A stretch of DNA of 7,007 nt from a virus (taxonomy: Duplodnaviria; Heunggongvirae; Uroviricota; Caudoviricetes), in the IMG/VR virus record IMGVR_UViG_2690316343_000005, one strand, 5' to 3'. Below are positions 1-7,007 of this stretch, one piece after another (position 1 is the first letter of the stretch; each line of letters opens with the position of its first letter). The translations under genes were made by a program, and so were the position numbers. Under the pieces are notes generated by a model. It saw only the letters and a list, made by a program, of their open reading frames with translations, had not been told where the DNA came from and ran no database searches.

Positions 1-437
1 GCCCATACCGGCGGCTTACCATCCGGATACTGGATCTTGTTTGTAAAAACCTCGCTTTCAATAAATTTTTTTCCGTGACAGCAGGGGCACTGTTTTTTGC
101 TCGCCGCGCTACGGGCATAATCTTCAAACGCATACGAAGCCATAATACGCATCACTGCCGGTTTTATTTCTGCCGGGAGTTTTCTTAACGCCGCCACGCG
201 ATCACACCGACTGAGTGCATATTCTGTCAGCAATTCTGTTGCCCGCTCTCTGTCATTCATACTAATGCCCATTTTCCCAAGGAACGCAGAAACCCCCATC
301 TCAGCCCGATTCTGTGTCATGCCCTGCGCGGCCATCACATCAGTGATACTCAGCGCATCTTTCGACGTTGAGGCCGATGCATCAGTCAGGCCGGGGGATT
401 TTGGGGAGTAGTATTTCGGTAAATCTTCCAGTTTCAT
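1..437 (-). CDS. Q: Antitermination protein Q (lambda Q family), N-terminal 145 codons; C-terminus runs off the left window edge
   Basis: Manual minus-strand translation from ATG at 437..435 gives MKLEDLPKYYSPKSPGLTDASASTSKDALSITDVMAAQGMTQ...KQCPCCHGKKFIE with no stop to position 1. It closely parallels lambda Q as recalled (MRLESVAKFHSPKSP...GTDVMAAMGMAQ...CRDCHGTG zinc motif). The ATG overlaps the rusA TGA (ATGA). Confidence 0.85.
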   Translation of the reverse strand, partial: MKLEDLPKYYSPKSPGLTDASASTSKDALSITDVMAAQGMTQNRAEMGVSAFLGKMGISMNDRERATELLTEYALSRCDRVAALRKLPAEIKPAVMRIMASYAFEDYARSAASKKQCPCCHGKKFIESEVFTNKIQYPDGKPPVW

Positions 438-814
438 TTTTTGACCTGCCCTTCAAGCATTATGGGATAAATCTTCACCCCCAGACGTCCACCAGATACT
501 GGCTGACCACGAACGATATTGATTTCATCAAACTGCTCATCGTCCATTAGCAACCCCGCATGCGTCAGCGCATCCAGCGGCGCTTTCAGAATATTGTCCA
601 GGTCACGGCGGCGCTTATCCGGTGGTTCTGCAATAATTTTTATTGCCAACCTTCCGGACAGGCTTAATTTCAGCCGCTGCTGGCGAACAATAAGCGCCAC
701 TGCCCGGCGATAACGCTCCCCGGCTTTTGATACAAAATATGTGCTGCCACGACGACGCCAGTAAGTGTTCACCGTCGGCGGGTAAGGTAAAACAAATTCT
801 ATGCGCTCGGTCAT
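434..814 (-). CDS. rusA: Crossover junction endodeoxyribonuclease RusA (Holliday junction resolvase)
   Basis: 126-aa ORF with RusA hallmarks (LPYPPTVNTYW, DKRRRDLDNILKAPLDALTHAGLLMDDEQ) similar to E. coli RusA as recalled. ATG at 814..812 directly abuts the upstream gene's TAA. Confidence 0.9.
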   Translation of the reverse strand: MTERIEFVLPYPPTVNTYWRRRGSTYFVSKAGERYRRAVALIVRQQRLKLSLSGRLAIKIIAEPPDKRRRDLDNILKAPLDALTHAGLLMDDEQFDEINIVRGQPVSGGRLGVKIYPIMLEGQVKK

Positions 815-1873
815 TTATGCTTTCCACTTCAGAACACCCGAATTTCTCGCGTGCATTAAAAAACGAATCAGCAACAACAGCTGACTGCCGTGTTTCTCTT
901 CAAAATCTTTTACTCCGGCATGTAGTTCGTTACGGCATTTACGGCATAACGGAATAACAAACAAATCATCAGCCTTTGTTCCCATCCCTCCCAGTCCATG
1001 ACCAATGATGTGATGCGGATCATCTGCCTGATTGCCACACGTCATGCATTTCTGCGTTTTTACCCAGCGCGTGTATACAGGCATCTCTTCCCGTTGTGAT
1101 TTCTGGCGCTGGAGATACTGAGCCGGTGACTCCGGATCAACGGCAATGCTGACCACCGTCTTTTCCTGTGGTGGGTTCTGTTGCTGGTGGACGTGAGGCA
1201 GTAACGCAATATTTTTTGTGCGCTGCTTCAGTATGCTGGTGGCTGTCTGCTCTCCCGGTATGATGTCGCTTTCACTGTACACAGAGCGAATTTTTTCCGC
1301 ACGCAACCCCAGCGAACGACGTAATACCGCTTCCGGTAGCGCGTCCGCCACCTGATTGCGGACCGCCCACCAGGATAATTCAGCCAGAGATAATTCACGC
1401 TCCTGCGTACCGCTTATTGCGTGACCGATGACGTCAATCATCCATGCTGACAGGTTTTGATGAGCAAGTTGCTCGAGTGATTCGGATGTCTGGTCACGCA
1501 GCTGGTTGTCGCAGTGCCAGCACAACACCATTGCGCCGGTACCATAACGGTGAATGACGGTTTCGCTGTGATGATAATCGCCGTGTGGCCACTGGCAGGA
1601 TTTAATATGGCGCAACAGCCAGTCAGACAATGCACCAGCACCACCAGCAGCACGAATCACCCGTGCGTTACTGAAAAACGGCAGCAATGTTTTGTCTTCC
1701 ACCAGCGGCTGGCGAGCGGCAGGAACGACCCCGGACGGCAGATTACGCATGCTTTTTGGTTCCGGCTCCACCAGTATTCTGCCGTTATGGAATGCTGACA
1801 TTGATTCACGGCCTGGCTTAACGATAACCAGACCGAGTTCCGGTACCAGAACAGGTCGAAGTAATACCCGCAC
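815..1873 (-). CDS. DUF968-like (YdfU-like) prophage protein with C-terminal HNH-type Cys/His motif
   Basis: 352-aa ORF. C-terminus CMTCGNQADDPHHIIGHGLGG...LCRKCRNELH resembles an HNH/zinc-finger nuclease motif. A DUF968 gene sits between hok and Q in E. coli Qin prophage, as recalled. Start is GTG at 1873 preceded by GGAGGT; an alternative ATG lies at 1801. Confidence 0.65.
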   Translation of the reverse strand: MRVLLRPVLVPELGLVIVKPGRESMSAFHNGRILVEPEPKSMRNLPSGVVPAARQPLVEDKTLLPFFSNARVIRAAGGAGALSDWLLRHIKSCQWPHGDYHHSETVIHRYGTGAMVLCWHCDNQLRDQTSESLEQLAHQNLSAWMIDVIGHAISGTQERELSLAELSWWAVRNQVADALPEAVLRRSLGLRAEKIRSVYSESDIIPGEQTATSILKQRTKNIALLPHVHQQQNPPQEKTVVSIAVDPESPAQYLQRQKSQREEMPVYTRWVKTQKCMTCGNQADDPHHIIGHGLGGMGTKADDLFVIPLCRKCRNELHAGVKDFEEKHGSQLLLLIRFLMHARNSGVLKWKA

Positions 1874-1948: not shown

Positions 1949-2230
1949 TTATCCAGTGACGGTAGTCGAGGCTAAGGGCTTTTTTAACCTCGCATCCGCG
2001 CCTGCGGTAACACTGAATGAGCCATTCGGCCTGTTCTTCAGTGCATGGGGGATGCTGGTACCAATCAGATTTAAATGCGTGAGAGCGCCGCCCGTGCCTG
2101 CTGGCAAAGACGGCTGAATTATCAGAATTGTGTAGTCTGGAAGGCAGTGGCTGACAATAGCGCCATTCTCAACGCGCACAGTATAGAGGCCATCTTCACT
2201 AAAAATTTCACGTAATTCTTCGATTTTCAT
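1949..2230 (-). CDS. Small hypothetical protein, copy 1 (MKIEELREIFSEDGLYTVRVENGAIVSHC...); shares first 29 codons with 2757..3044
   Basis: ATG at 2230..2228 preceded by GGAAGG 9 nt upstream. N-terminal 29 codons lie inside the 252-bp direct repeat; the C-terminal ~64 aa are unique. Confidence 0.4.
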   Translation of the reverse strand: MKIEELREIFSEDGLYTVRVENGAIVSHCLPDYTILIIQPSLPAGTGGALTHLNLIGTSIPHALKNRPNGSFSVTAGADARLKKPLASTTVTG

Positions 2231-2400
2231 CAACAGAATCCTTCCAGATAAATAGCACTCCCCTGTTCGGGGTCCATCCCTCTTCTCCCTGCGCGCTACT
2301 TAAGTATTTTTGATTCTATTCCGGCACCATCTAAAACTTCAAACGCGTTGAAAATAAAAACAAAAACCCGCCGAAACGCTGAGAGATCACAGCGATGGGC
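2149..2400. repeat. 252-bp direct repeat, copy 1 (hok-type terminator hairpin + promoter-like region + 5' end of small ORF); truncated by gap
   Basis: Aligns without indels to 2962..3213. Flanks are near-identical (gctgacaat...cttaagt and cccgccgaaacgctgagagatcacagcgatgggc); the central ~60 bp diverges. Confidence 0.8.
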
Positions 2401-2756: not shown

Positions 2757-3044
2757 TCAATCCTGCTCAAGATTGTAGATGAGTTTATTCTTCAGCAAAA
2801 GCAGAAAACCAGCCTTAAAACCAATCTCTTTCAAAACCCGTAATGATGTGACAAATTCGTCCTCACGCAAAATAAAACCGTCCGTCAGAAGTCCATTACA
2901 AAAATAAAATAACACAGCACCGCTCTTCCTTTGTTGAGATTGCAAACATCTAATGCGGCAATGGCTGACAATCGCTCCATTCTCAACGCGCACAGCATAG
3001 AGGCCATTTTCACTAAAAATTTCACGCAATTCTTCGATTTTCAT
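2757..3044 (-). CDS. Small hypothetical protein, copy 2 (MKIEELREIFSENGLYAVRVENGAIVSHC...), divergent C-terminus
   Basis: 95-aa ORF beginning inside the second 252-bp repeat copy, with the same RBS context as copy 1. Sits just downstream of the hok terminator and a promoter-like TTGATT-N16-TAGAAT. Confidence 0.4.
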   Translation of the reverse strand: MKIEELREIFSENGLYAVRVENGAIVSHCRIRCLQSQQRKSGAVLFYFCNGLLTDGFILREDEFVTSLRVLKEIGFKAGFLLLLKNKLIYNLEQD

Positions 3045-3213
3045 CTTCAGAATCCTTCCAGATAAATAGCTCTCCCCTGTTCGGGGTCCATCCCTCTTCT
3101 CCCTGCGCGCTACTTAAGTGAGTCGATTCTATCTGCGAAGGTGCGCGAATCAAATTCACCGGAAATAAACAACAAAAAACCCGCCGAAACGCTGAGAGAT
3201 CACAGCGATGGGC
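2962..3213. repeat. 252-bp direct repeat, copy 2
   Basis: See copy 1; identical length with scattered substitutions. Confidence 0.8.
3126..3153 (-). promoter_or_regulatory. Putative sigma70 promoter for the small ORF (minus strand TTGATT-N16-TAGAAT)
   Basis: Minus-strand -35 TTGATT (plus 3148..3153) and -10 TAGAAT (plus 3126..3131), 16-nt spacer, immediately downstream of the hok terminator. Read by eye only. Confidence 0.3.
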
Positions 3214-3293: not shown

Positions 3294-3633
3294 TTACTTC
3301 CTGGATTCGTAGTCTACGAAGACAGCGACCTCCGTCTGGCCGGTTCGGATTCGTACCTCACAGAGGTCTTTCCTCGTTACCAGTGCCGTCACTATGACGG
3401 TNNNNNNNNNNNNNNNNNNNNNNNNNNNNNNNNNNNNNNNNNNNNNNNNNNNNNNNNNNNNNNNNNNNNNNNNNNNNNNNNNNNNNNNNNNNNNNNNNNN
3501 NNNNNNNNNNNNNCTCCGTCTGGCCGGTTCGAATTCGTACCTCGCAGAGGTCTTTCCTCGTTACCAGTGCCGTCACTATGACGGTTAAACAGATGACGAT
3601 CAGGGCGATTAACATCGCCTTTTGCTGCTTCAT
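3294..3633 (-). CDS. hok: Hok-family type I toxin (51 aa), split in this assembly by the N-gap and a 72-bp duplicated overlap
   Basis: ATG at 3633..3631 with AGGAG 9 nt upstream. Reads MKQQKAMLIALIVICLTVIVTALVTRKDLCEVRIRTGQTE (3514..3633), then gap, then ...EVAVFVDYESRK with stop at 3296..3294. Removing 112 N and the 72-bp duplicate gives exactly 156 nt. Near-identical to E. coli HokD/RelF as recalled. Confidence 0.85.
3402..3513. other. Assembly gap (112 N) flanked by a 72-bp near-identical overlap (3330..3401 vs 3514..3585)
   Basis: The flanks differ at two positions (G/A, A/G), both synonymous in hok. Confidence 0.95.
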
Positions 3634-3839
3634 AGCCTGCTTCTCCTTGCCTTTCGGCATGTAAGAGGCTAACCTACATGTGCAAAGCATGAAATTGGCC
3701 TCAGATTAATGTTAAGCGTCTTGCCGGACGCGTAATGTTAACTGGGGCTTTTCTCTATCTGCCTTTTGGTGTTCATGCCTGAAGCAGATAGCCTCAAGCA
3801 CCCGCAGTCATTCTACTTACCTCGCCAATATGAAATCAA
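3634..3839 (-). promoter_or_regulatory. hok promoter and long 5' leader (tac-like element; expected mok/sok region)
   Basis: Minus-strand -35 TTGATT (plus 3834..3839), 18-nt spacer, -10 TAGAAT (plus 3810..3815). The leader begins with GCGGGTGCTTGAGG, complementary to the 3' UTR element. The ~170-nt leader fits hok/sok-type loci. A sok promoter could not be pinpointed. Confidence 0.4.
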
Positions 3840-3860
3840 TCAGAAAGGTGCCCCATAAAA

Positions 3861-4547
3861 TCACTCCTTCTCTTCTTTACCGTAGTGGAGTTGACCAATT
3901 TTGATAAGAGGGCGTCCCTGAGATTTGCGGTGTAGATTGGTATCGCGCAGAGAATACACACAGCCACAATATTCCTGCTGATAGAATTTTTCGCGCTTGC
4001 TGATTTCAATCATACGGGACGAGCCGCCCTGCTTGCGCCAGTTATAATCCCAGTACACCATGCCCGGATAATGCGCGACGGCTCGCCGCCCACAGTCGTT
4101 AACCTGCTGCATATTTTTCCAGCGTGAAATGCCCAGTGAACTGCTGATCACACTGAAACCATTTTCAGCGGCGTACAGCGCTGTCCGCTCAAAACGCATG
4201 TCAAAACACATGGTGCAACGGATCCCTCGTTCGGGCTCCCATTCCATTCCTTTGGCTCGTTCAAACCAGTTGTCTGTGTCGTAATCAGCATCAATAAACG
4301 GCACGCCGTGTTGTTCAGCAAAGCGAATATTCTCATCCTTACGAATTAAATACTCTTTCTGAGGATGAATGTTCGGGTTGTAGAAAAAGATGGTGTAGTC
4401 GATTCCCGAGGCCTGAAGCGCCTCCATCACCTCACCGGAACATGGAGCACAGCAAGAGTGCAGTAGTAGTTTGTTTGCCCCGTTTGGGAGCTCCAATTTG
4501 GGCCGTTTGAAATCAGCAACTGTCATAAATATGTTTATTGGGGTCAT
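3861..4547 (-). CDS. queH: QueH-like epoxyqueuosine reductase homolog (DUF208 family, Fe-S enzyme)
   Basis: 228-aa ORF with [15 protein letters not shown] near the N-terminus plus conserved [19 protein letters not shown] and QEYCGCVYS motifs typical of DUF208/QueH. An alternative ATG lies at 4526; neither start has a clear RBS. Confidence 0.8.
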
Positions 4548-4694
4548 AAAAATATCAAAGAGTGTAGCATTAGAACGGGGCTATCGGAAACAGATGTGTG
4601 ACTGCTCCCCGCCCTTTCGGGTGGTCTCCTGATGATTTGAGGGTGCAGAAATCCCTCCGGTTAAGGATTAAATTTTTAACAGTGCTAAATTTAA

Positions 4695-5108
4695 TTATTC
4701 AGTTCTGGATTTTGTCGCCCTGCGTATCCGCGCTTTCGCGTTACGCTCAATCTGTATCAGCTTTTCTATATTTCTCCGCCTTTCCTGTTCCTCCTGGCGC
4801 AATAGCCTTACATCATCTGCCAGTCTGGTTTCTCTTTTTGCCACAGAGAGCATCCAGTCAAACGGCTCCACAACCGCACCGCAGATTTTACAGCGGACCT
4901 GACGCTCTTTTTCGTCAACCCGGACAGAGGCGTGATGGCAATATGGTCTTTCCGATGGCTCATAAAGAAAATTAACCTGATTACGAGGGTCATCCTCTTT
5001 TACCGGAAATAAAACGATATTGCTTAACTCATCTTCTGGTTTTATTTCCATGCTCCTCTCCTTTGATGCGAATGCCAGCGGTAATTGAAGCCTGATAGCT
5101 AATTTCAT
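4695..5108 (-). CDS. Hypothetical zinc-ribbon protein with basic coiled-coil C-terminus
   Basis: C-H-H...C-x2-C cluster (YCHHASVRVDEKERQVRCKICG) followed by a charged helical tail (RLLRQEEQERRRNIEKLIQIERNAKARIRR). ATG at 5108 abuts the upstream TGA (AGGAGG 11 nt upstream); an alternative ATG at 5051 has AGGAG 6 nt upstream. Confidence 0.6.
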   Translation of the reverse strand: MKLAIRLQLPLAFASKERSMEIKPEDELSNIVLFPVKEDDPRNQVNFLYEPSERPYCHHASVRVDEKERQVRCKICGAVVEPFDWMLSVAKRETRLADDVRLLRQEEQERRRNIEKLIQIERNAKARIRRATKSRTE

Positions 5109-5531
5109 TCACAGTATCGCCTCCTGAAAATTACCCTGATAGAAAGCCAGTACACGCTGCATAGCTTCGCTCTTCCGGCACTCGCGACAGATTATATTCA
5201 GGCGCCTGTCGTAGCGGCGTATTTCTCCGTCAGGTAATGACCAGATAAGGTCCGGATCAACAACAACCGGTTTCCTCACCTTTACTCTCGAGAGTTTTTT
5301 GCGGGCGCTTTGCCAGTCCTTGCGAGCCTGTTCAGACGGGAATAAGCCGTAGCCAGAATTATATACATCACCACTTGCGACCAGTTCTATGCATAAGCGA
5401 CCGACAGACGCACGACTGATACCTGTTTCATCTGACAACTGCCGAATCGTGACCCGACCGTCCTGATGCACGAGTTCCACAATTCGCGTCTTCAGTTCTT
5501 CCCGCTGTTCGGGAGTAAAAGGTTTCGCCAT
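5109..5531 (-). CDS. Winged-helix DNA-binding protein, possibly YdaW/DUF977-like, with C-terminal CxxC
   Basis: 140-aa ORF. N-terminal HTH-like segment (TIRQLSDETGISRASVGRLCIELVASG) and CRECRK near the C-terminus. AGGAGG lies 4 nt before the ATG. Its position after the DnaC-like gene mirrors ydaU-ydaV-ydaW in Rac prophage, as recalled. Confidence 0.65.
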   Translation of the reverse strand: MAKPFTPEQREELKTRIVELVHQDGRVTIRQLSDETGISRASVGRLCIELVASGDVYNSGYGLFPSEQARKDWQSARKKLSRVKVRKPVVVDPDLIWSLPDGEIRRYDRRLNIICRECRKSEAMQRVLAFYQGNFQEAIL

Positions 5532-5545
5532 AAATCCTCCTGAAA

Positions 5546-6292
5546 CTACTTAACAACCCTCGAATGGCTAACATTCGGACGCCAGCTCTCCCAGTTAAAA
5601 TTCACCCAGCGCCCGCCGTTCATGACCATGCGATCCATCACCCGCTCGCCGAGCAATGTTTTCATCACCTCATAGTTCAGGTTTGTCAGCATCCCCACGC
5701 TGCGCATCGACGCTGTCCGGCGATCAACAATCTGGTGCAGCACCACCTGCTCGTTTTTCGTCTCGCGCTGAATGCCAATTTCATCAAGAACCAGCAGATC
5801 CACTTCGCACAGCTCCCGCAAAAATTTTTCGCCTGACTGCCCGTCGTCATAGCTGGCGTGCAGGGCGCTCATAACATCAGCCACGGTAACCACAATCACT
5901 GTCTGACCGTCTTTCAGCAGGCGATTCCCGATAGCTGCCGCTAAGTGATTCTTCCCGGTACCAGGTTTTCCGCTGAACGCAAAATTTGTACACCCGGTCA
6001 TCAGTTCATCGGCGATGGATTTCGCCTGGCTTAACGCGTATCGCTGGCCGTCGTTCTGCACCTGGTAATTCGCAAACGAGCATTTACGGTGCAACGGCTG
6101 GATGCCTGAGCGATTCAGAATTTTTTCCACCCGCAACTGGCGATTCAGGCGGTTGATCTCCTCGCTACGTTTCTGGCCTTCAGCAAGTTGCCACTCGCGC
6201 CACTCCGCTACCGTTCTGAATGGGGCGGTTACATGTGGCGGGGTCAGTCGGCGGATGCGTTCCAGAACGCCGCCTGTCGCAATATTTTTCAT
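5546..6292 (-). CDS. DnaC-like replicative helicase loader (IstB-like AAA+ ATPase)
   Basis: 248 aa with Walker A FSGKPGTGKNHLAAAIGN and Walker B DLLVLDEIG. Collinear high similarity to E. coli DnaC as recalled (NRSGIQPLH, LGERVMDRM). Confidence 0.9.
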   Translation of the reverse strand: MKNIATGGVLERIRRLTPPHVTAPFRTVAEWREWQLAEGQKRSEEINRLNRQLRVEKILNRSGIQPLHRKCSFANYQVQNDGQRYALSQAKSIADELMTGCTNFAFSGKPGTGKNHLAAAIGNRLLKDGQTVIVVTVADVMSALHASYDDGQSGEKFLRELCEVDLLVLDEIGIQRETKNEQVVLHQIVDRRTASMRSVGMLTNLNYEVMKTLLGERVMDRMVMNGGRWVNFNWESWRPNVSHSRVVK

Positions 6293-6298
6293 GGTCCG

Positions 6299-7007
6299 TT
6301 ACCCCCTGAAGCCTGGCGGGATCGCACTGTCCGGCAACGAGACGGTGTTAACCTGTCGGAGCAACGTCTCAGGCCGAACACCTTTCGGCGCGAACAGGCC
6401 CTGGTATTCATTGGCGATGCTGTGTCGAATCACCTGCTCAGGTGTAAAACCCTGCTGACGGAATTTTTCCAGTTCCCGTATCGCCCCGTTAGCGCCCTGC
6501 TCCGTTCGAATCGGTTTTCGCAATGCCTGTCTGAACCGGACCCACTCATGCCAGAGTGTTTCCGGCAACCAATCGGGCAGCTCAATAGCCTCCGGCTCGA
6601 ATTTTTTAGACGCTCGTTTTTGGCGAGGGGGAGATCAGTATTTAGATCTTCCTCTTCCTCTTCCTCTGGTAACGCTTTTTGATCCGTTTGTGTAACGCTG
6701 GCAGCGTTACCTTTTCGTTTCAGTTCGCGTATTTTTGTTACTCGCTCGTTTGTAACCGCCCGTTTTTTTTAGAGCTTTTTCCGTTATGACGTTCAAAGTT
6801 AGGTAGAGAAAGCCCTCCGTCATTTTCGACCAGCCATCCAACCTGAATTAACGCATCAGCAAAACCAGACATAAAAGTGATGCGATCTATTGCACTTTTT
6901 GTAACGCCGCGAGCGTTACAATCTGCATTACCGTCTATCATTTGTTGATCCGCCCATGCCCAGAAGCGAATAACCTGAGGTAGCCTGAGTTTAACGGACA
7001 CTCCTTC
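6299..7007 (-). pseudogene. Replication initiator (YdaU/DUF1376-like, O-protein analogue) interrupted by two frameshifts at homopolymers; N-terminus may extend past the right edge
   Basis: Three consecutive open frames on the minus strand join into one protein if one A is added at the 8-nt run (plus 6773..6780) and one at the 6-nt run (plus 6602..6607): MSVKLRLPQV...GKSSKK|RAVTNERVTKIRELKRK...PEEEEEEDL...AKNERLK|FEPEAIELPDWLPETLWHEW...GFRG*. The stop is 6 nt before the DnaC-like ATG. Confidence 0.6.
6633..6770. repeat. Origin-like sequence cluster inside the replication gene: 3 GATC sites in 52 bp, (GAGGAA)x3, perfect 9-bp inverted repeat GTAACGCTG-g-CAGCGTTAC and related TTTGTAAC(C)GC motifs
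   Basis: GATC at 6633, 6645 and 6681; cttcct x3 at 6649..6667; inverted repeat at about 6691..6709; similar motifs near 6669 and 6755. Confidence 0.3.

Follow-up and report, generated by a model that had tools for sequence, protein, structure and literature searches.

The DNA analyzed here, hereafter the window, is a 7,007-nucleotide stretch of a tailed virus of the Caudoviricetes recovered from IMG/VR. The ORF listing of the window gives a single ORF of 228 amino acids for the interval 3861..4547, on the minus strand, and its translation contains the motifs LHSCCAPCS (from residue 29), CTMCFD (from residue 111), and QEYCGC (from residue 191). A prior reading of this DNA, made from the sequence only, had called 3861-4547 a QueH-like gene with signature cysteines but had given no strand; the one ORF with all three motifs bears out that call and, lying at exactly these coordinates, places the gene on the minus strand. 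The frame stays open to an upstream ATG at 4547, which yields the 228-residue product, while a second ATG lies at 4526, where RefSeq/PGAP places the start; the resulting queH CDS (3861..4526, minus strand, 221 amino acids plus stop) matches RefSeq WP_012421537.1. Two observations favor the second ATG: three of the eight amino acid differences between the QueH proteins of the window and of Escherichia phage HannyBb lie within the first seven codons, and in one related locus (n=1) there is a 1-nucleotide insertion between the two ATGs that would break the longer frame. Hence, initiation at 4526, with a product of 221 residues, appears the likelier of the two options. On inspection of the sequence, neither ATG was seen to be preceded by a Shine-Dalgarno sequence. 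A 24-nucleotide inverted repeat in the gene region (3986-4009 with 4507-4530, 79% complementary) was judged to be a chance occurrence.

The neighbors of queH are all encoded on the same (minus) strand, with genes for a replication O-like protein, the DnaC-like YdaV, a DUF977/Ren-like protein (named "Ren-like exclusion protein" by PHROGs), and a zinc-ribbon hypothetical protein upstream, and hok, DUF1367, DUF968, and RusA genes downstream. The hypothetical protein whose gene separates queH from the Ren-like gene (4695-5108, minus strand, 137 amino acids) belongs to phrog_1621, labeled as of unknown function, and its zinc-ribbon match is weak, falling below the Pfam threshold; the gene is missing from most queH-bearing prophages, in which queH directly follows DUF977. 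At the other end, the DUF968 protein (815-1873, minus strand, 352 amino acids) is YdfU-like with an HNH-like C-terminal region, and the ORF for the RusA Holliday-junction resolvase (434-814, minus strand) starts at the base adjoining the DUF968 stop, with zero gap, an arrangement typical of the end of Qin/Rac-like nin regions. Two runs of Ns, at 2401-2411 (11 bases) and 3402-3513 (112 bases), mask parts of the DUF1367 gene and of the 3' region of hok, and the ORF translations that cross them contain X. The DUF1367 ORF is interrupted by Ns and reads 154 amino acids in the window versus 199 in the prophage of E. coli FDAARGOS_944 (18443-19042). It is bracketed by two ORFs (1949..2233 and 2757..3044) of phrog_340, again of unknown function, both of which begin MKIEELREIFSE. 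A direct repeat of about 258 nucleotides (2143-2400 versus 2957-3213, 90-94% identical, spacing about 814) lies in the same region, and this arrangement resembles a scar left where nin regions of prophages have recombined.

Directly downstream of queH is a hok/sok type I toxin-antitoxin locus (3514..3839, minus strand), with the hok ATG at 3633 and the 3' end masked by the Ns at 3402-3513; the Rfam model RF01794 recovers sok with 117 bits at 3628-3803 on the minus strand. The regulatory region of hok/sok (3628-3839, minus strand) is thus present in full. A promoter-like sequence for hok, TTGATT-18-TAGAAT (3839..3810, minus strand), starts 22 nucleotides past the queH stop and is the sole minus-strand site returned by the promoter scan. 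A 72-nucleotide direct repeat (3330-3401 versus 3514-3585, 97% identical, spacing 184) lies on either side of the larger run of Ns and encodes the C-terminal half of Hok, of which the related locus of E. albertii has one copy; the mask may conceal a second, or a tandem partial, copy of hok in the window. Control of queH by an upstream riboswitch for B12 or preQ1 was considered and rejected, as an Rfam scan at gathering thresholds, covering the window and two chromosomal loci, gave sok only.

On the other side, a leader of about 50 nucleotides (4548..4597, minus strand) travels with queH across 80 IMG/VR loci. It contains an extended -10-like element, TGcTACACT (4569..4561, minus strand), 13 nucleotides upstream of the first queH ATG, and a weak -35-like element, TTCCGA (4589..4584, minus strand), that agrees with the consensus at 3/6 positions. 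The sequence TGCTACACT was found in 80/80 of these loci, with the adjacent bases being variable. A consensus promoter scan returned no sigma-70 site upstream of queH and did not call TGcTACACT, which is a candidate for a weak promoter of its own for queH. A simple scan for terminator-like sites found none in 3300-5200, and, with no terminator between queH and hok, transcripts of queH would read into the leader of the hok mRNA. Beside the mosaic junction upstream of queH lies a hairpin with a GAAA tetraloop, CCACCC-GAAA-GGGCGG (4609..4624, minus strand), which has a perfect stem (CCGCCC...GGGCGG) in some loci; without an accompanying T-run, it differs from a typical intrinsic terminator.

The wider genomic context of the gene is that of a temperate phage. 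In E. coli FDAARGOS_944, a 100% identical gene is found in a lambdoid prophage of about 32 kb beside ybhA, whose order begins with the repressor, Cro, and YdaT, followed by a replication protein, YdaV (DnaC-like), DUF977, a hypothetical protein, and QueH, and continues through hokD, DUF1367, DUF1364, DUF1133, four tRNA genes, and the lysis and structural genes. The positions 3514-7007 of the window are 99.9% identical to the best-matching IMG/VR prophage contig, while the locus in the representative genome of E. albertii shows 94% identity to the window. Comparison of the 80 IMG/VR loci shows that queH, the approximately 50 nucleotides upstream of it, and hok/sok constitute a mosaic module: in 64/80 the match to the window extends no further than 4590-4599, the module junction falls at 4597-4621 in related loci, and in most of those 64 queH comes directly after the DUF977/Ren-like gene. 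Other prophages hold unrelated cargo between the same flanks, such as DUF7167 and hypothetical proteins. The linkage of hok/sok to queH is retained in nearly all prophages, with hokD being annotated beside QueH. Thus, the placement of the gene by the sequence-only reading has held up well: its prophage origin is supported by the FDAARGOS_944 prophage, HannyBb, and the IMG/VR contigs; its location in the early operon, at a position of ren/nin accessory genes, by the collinear same-strand neighbors, the Ren-like gene upstream, and the variable cargo slot; and the survey of related prophages that it had suggested recovers the queH-hok/sok module recurrently after Ren-like or replication genes.

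A Pfam search with the protein recovered PF02677 (QueH) with 220.6 bits (E=1.9e-65) against a gathering score of 23.5 bits, covering positions 1-174 of the 175-position profile. It was the sole match at E<=0.01, and at this threshold neither the cobalamin-binding nor the 2x[4Fe-4S] ferredoxin domains of the QueG type were detected in the protein. A sequence search of the PDB returned QueH entries only, with phmmer aligning residues 27-203 to the solved Thermotoga maritima QueH 7LC5 (E=5e-22). An AF2 model of moderate confidence (pLDDT 72, pTM 0.73), for which 28 homologues were used, was compared with the PDB using Foldseek; the top five matches were all T. maritima QueH (target-normalised TM 0.76-0.78, E~1e-9), and the next best were TtuA and LarE, related Fe-S/ATP-pyrophosphatase-like enzymes, at E>5e-5. 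In a family alignment of 88 sequences, comprising the query, 86 representatives from a 50%-identity library, and T. maritima QueH, all seven conserved cysteines of the family are present in the prophage protein (Cys32, Cys33, Cys36, Cys111, Cys114, Cys194, and Cys196), each being the majority residue, as are H30, N57, N59, Q191, and G195; the seven cysteines are moreover invariant among 28 close homologues. These fall into an N-terminal CCxPC, a middle CxxC, and a C-terminal CxC, which we take to bind a [4Fe-4S] cluster and an adjacent iron; the assignment of individual cysteines to the cluster or to the extra iron is reportedly that made by Li et al. in 2021. Cys36 occupies the position of Asp13 in the T. 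maritima enzyme, which its depositors mutated to Asn in PDB 9DCO; as a cysteine is found there in 71/77 aligned family members, it is T. maritima QueH, rather than the prophage protein, that is the deviating member. On the strength of these profile, alignment, and model comparisons, the prophage gene is a genuine member of the QueH/DUF208 family, and both checks that the sequence-only reading had proposed for its assignment, the HMM search against DUF208/QueH and the alignment of the cysteine ligands, come out in its favor.

The closest relatives of the prophage copy include chromosomal QueH proteins of other enterobacteria, with amino acid identities of 92% in Scandinavium, 91% in Kluyvera, 89-90% in Enterobacter, 80-86% in Erwinia, 84% in Providencia, 82% in Serratia, and 79-80% in Photorhabdus; Pantoea too carries a chromosomal, non-phage queH. 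These proteins (Providencia, Photorhabdus, Enterobacter, Scandinavium, Kluyvera, and Erwinia) are 214-223 amino acids long and share all invariant columns with the prophage copy, but, unlike it, they are encoded in housekeeping-gene neighborhoods free of hok and phage genes. In Providencia the gene is beside tmcA and near purC and dapE; in Photorhabdus it adjoins benE and toxin genes; in Enterobacter it lies among genes for NUDIX, pseudouridine synthase, chorismate mutase, and GGDEF proteins; and in Scandinavium among SDR and DUF1543 genes. Among 80 species-representative loci, it is only in E. albertii that Hok and DUF977 adjoin queH. QueH is in general unusually conserved across classes, with the prophage copy showing 76-82% identity to those of Sphingomonas, Stenotrophomonas, Pseudomonas, and Lysobacter (76-82% for the first three when taken by themselves). 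Certain oddly placed QueH records, namely those of Bacillus subtilis SK7B5, "Avacidaminococcus", and Kingella MAGs, suggest contamination or transfer. The earlier statement that enterobacteria normally use QueG needs to be divided accordingly: it stands for E. coli, where queG was found in 5426/5426 complete genomes, but is too broad for the Enterobacterales, many of which have a chromosomal queH with 79-92% identity to the prophage copy.

The dN/dS of 0.08 between the window and HannyBb copies indicates that queH is under strong purifying selection. Against the Providencia gene, pS is saturated (0.90) and pN is 0.115, and this synonymous saturation implies that the capture was not a recent transfer from the Providencia lineage. 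The G+C fraction of queH (0.492) is close to that of the prophage (0.494). These comparisons suggest that a chromosomal queH of the housekeeping type was captured long ago and has been kept by strong purifying selection while moving with temperate phages.

As cargo the gene is common. It is present in 995/5426 complete E. coli genomes (about 18%), nearly always as one chromosomal copy annotated by RefSeq as "epoxyqueuosine reductase QueH", and 985 of these 995 genomes retain at least 80% of it; E. coli 042 and APEC O1 are among the carriers. Since queG is found in every one of the 5426 genomes, every queH-positive E. coli has both reductases. The exact 221-residue sequence is a RefSeq "MULTISPECIES" QueH of the Enterobacteriaceae present on at least 1000 contigs, and the 90% cluster to which it belongs has 2308 members, including proteins from Shigella, Enterobacter, and Klebsiella. 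At least 189 prophage contigs in IMG/VR carry copies that are 99-100% identical, and protein identity is likewise 99-100% across the 80 loci compared. Among the phage genomes of GenBank, HannyBb is the sole isolated phage with a close copy, there labeled "hypothetical protein"; the other 24 tblastn matches in this survey of cultured phages are unannotated fecal fragments or oversized "phage" records resembling bacterial DNA. PHROGs places the protein in phrog_3217, "unknown function", whose profile of 188 positions begins at Met41 of the prophage QueH; from this it appears that many phage annotations call a 5'-truncated ORF without the CCAPC motif. A scan of the protein against NCBIfam gave no match to a curated model, so that no curated NCBIfam HMM is visible as the source of the RefSeq name. 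Our literature search turned up no publication that deals with an E. coli prophage QueH or tests this particular protein. The QueH identity is thus already known in bacterial annotation and has not been transferred to phage resources. The novelty implied by the sequence-only reading was therefore overstated, given that the identical protein already bears the name QueH in RefSeq across about 1000 complete genomes; as a gene identification there is nothing new in it, and it is an ordinary, common, and already annotated prophage cargo gene.

E. coli cannot make B12 de novo and must import it; among its B12-dependent steps, that of MetH has MetE as a back-up, and we know of no core back-up for QueG. 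The last step of queuosine (Q) formation in E. coli is cobalamin-dependent, being catalyzed by QueG/YjeS (PMC4646009, citing Frey 1988 and Miles 2011) on the epoxyqueuosine (oQ) that arises on tRNA through Tgt and QueA (PMC4646009; PMC5372724), and the complete Q pathway is present in this organism (PMC5372724, PMC9508795). QueH is described as a non-homologous, iron-dependent, and cobalamin-free alternative to QueG (PMC9508795; PMC13443448). Given the likeness of the prophage protein to its chromosomal near-twins, the most economical reading is that it converts oQ-tRNA to Q-tRNA without B12; since the QueG of E. coli needs imported B12, the prophage copy would give the cell a B12-independent way to complete Q. 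We accordingly consider it quite probable that the gene specifies a genuine cobalamin-independent QueH, captured by a phage from a related enterobacterial chromosome, which allows the lysogen or the infected cell to finish Q without B12. Under this proposal, a lambdoid phage lineage would have captured the gene from such a chromosome, and the queH-hok/sok module would now move in the variable slot that follows the Ren-like or replication genes. The host itself would supply oQ-tRNA through tgt and queA, and QueH would reduce oQ to Q at position 34 of tRNA-Asn, tRNA-Asp, tRNA-His, and tRNA-Tyr, acting as a back-up when cobalamin scarcity, including that faced by a B12-auxotrophic host, limits the core reductase QueG with its need for imported B12. 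We infer both the reduction of oQ by the prophage QueH in E. coli and that independence from B12 is the benefit under selection.

As to when such an enzyme would be deployed, one tentative answer is that queH is a lysogenic-conversion moron, transcribed from its own extended -10 in the repressed prophage to the benefit of the host. Q formation would thereby be freed from the supply of B12, for instance where a niche is poor in B12 or where BtuB-dependent phages and colicins have selected btuB mutants. Such a role is consistent with the strong purifying selection on the gene, its occurrence in 18% of the complete genomes of E. coli as well as in Shigella, Enterobacter, and Klebsiella, the retention of the approximately 50-nucleotide leader despite differing upstream neighbors, and the persistence of TGcTACACT in 80/80 loci amid varying adjacent bases. 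The same leader also furnishes the objections: the -35 is poor (3/6), the consensus scan is silent, no terminator follows queH, and the conserved bases might just as well act as a signal for translation or simply belong to the leader. The more specific formulation, that queH and hok form a lysogenic-conversion cassette in which QueH made from the extended -10 frees E. coli from its lone B12-dependent housekeeping step without a back-up, is in our estimate doubtful.

Alternatively, queH might be a lytic auxiliary gene that is silent in the lysogen, induced with the delayed-early pR transcript, and used to top up Q-tRNA for the late genes, an option that we regard as plausible while stopping short of calling it probable. 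It agrees with the gene order, in which queH is on the same strand as, and collinear with, cro-O-P(YdaV)-Ren-like genes upstream and hok, nin-like genes, and RusA downstream with no terminator detected between queH and its flanking genes, as well as with the presence of queH at the same place in HannyBb, a plaque-forming isolate. The codon data lend it little, however. Among NAY codons, NAC makes up a fraction of 0.457 in 41 prophage CDS (0.454 in the late genes) versus 0.415 in 16 host CDS, so that prophage usage is close to that of the host sample, and there is no difference in this fraction between late and early prophage genes; hence, the bias in decoding of NAU/NAC codons, which the sequence-only reading had offered as a benefit to the phage, finds no meaningful signal in this comparison with a small host sample. 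As QueH acts on oQ to give Q, rather than on G to give Q, the idea of a decoding bias is weakened further: to our knowledge no decoding or translational difference between oQ and Q has been established, which makes it hard to see a benefit of the conversion if the enzyme is made only during the short lytic cycle. Further, the tRNA genes of the FDAARGOS_944 prophage are for Ile, Arg, Thr, and Gly, none of which is a Q-tRNA, and the lytic cycle is short for remodeling a tRNA pool.

It is improbable that queH is a neutral passenger, which persists without a selected function through its linkage to hok/sok and the success of the prophages that carry it. One might point to the tight linkage with hokD across prophages with differing neighbors and to the queG already possessed by the host, but a gene free of selection is expected to accumulate nonsynonymous changes and frameshifts, contrary to the retention of at least 80% of the gene in 985/995 genomes, the dN/dS of 0.08, and the 99-100% protein identity in the 80 IMG/VR loci. 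Finally, although phages use 7-deazaguanine chemistry for DNA modification (PMC6884629, PMC10516641) and the PHROGs label of phrog_3217 leaves room for another function, we find it hardly credible that the enzyme was repurposed (the sequence-only reading had allowed for another substrate), acting for example on a 7-deazaguanine DNA base or free nucleoside, or in a step countering a tRNA-targeting defense or colicin, in view of its 84-92% identity to orthologues in non-phage, housekeeping contexts, the retention of all conserved family columns, the low dN/dS, the absence from the annotation of the approximately 32-kb FDAARGOS_944 prophage (52 CDS and tRNA features) of DpdA, tgt, queA, queC/D/E/F, FolE, or preQ0-synthesis genes, among which are the components of phage 7-deazaguanine DNA-modification systems, the lack of DpdA/TGT-like, FolE, QueC, QueD, or QueE genes in the annotation of the 16.7-kb HannyBb region, and a PADLOC search that matched neither QueH nor four neighboring proteins and led us to reject a role in a defense system.

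If the prophage enzyme is active in lysogens, about one-fifth of E. coli strains, along with strains of Shigella, Enterobacter, and Klebsiella, would finish queuosine without B12, unlike strains of the K-12 type. This would amount to a strain-dependent, phage-delivered difference in the tRNA modification state of the host, with fully matured Q-tRNA being kept in B12-poor niches or after loss of BtuB under pressure from BtuB-dependent phages and colicins. Such a difference would matter for the measurement of Q and oQ, for codon-specific translation, and for B12 dependence in natural isolates, and it would extend the known cargo of temperate phages by a tRNA-modification enzyme.

Set against known systems, the prophage QueH has about 30% identity to T. 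maritima QueH (PDB 7LC5/7LC7/9DEU), with the same fold and matching positions of the CC..., CxxC, and CxC cysteines, but is about 20 residues longer at the C-terminus, an extension common to other proteobacterial QueH proteins, and in E. coli it is encoded by a prophage rather than the core genome. Like the morons and auxiliary metabolic genes of the lambda ren-nin region, queH occupies a variable slot after a Ren-like gene with a sharp mosaic junction; it may depart from classic morons, in that the scans returned no clear promoter and terminator pair of its own and in that it is coupled to hok/sok in nearly all prophages. With QueG (YjeS), which depends on cobalamin and 2x[4Fe-4S], it shares the genomes in which it occurs and, by prediction, the reduction of oQ to Q, though the two are non-homologous and the prophage protein has no QueG-type domain. 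In the 2017 study of Zallot, Acinetobacter baylyi is reported to possess both reductases. Staphylococcus aureus also has QueG and QueH, which are redundant, with differing expression profiles and a suggested division of labor, both ascribed to cofactor availability (PMC13443448). The queH-positive E. coli strains likewise have two reductases per cell, but here the second is contributed not by the core genome but by a mobile prophage found in about 18% of strains.
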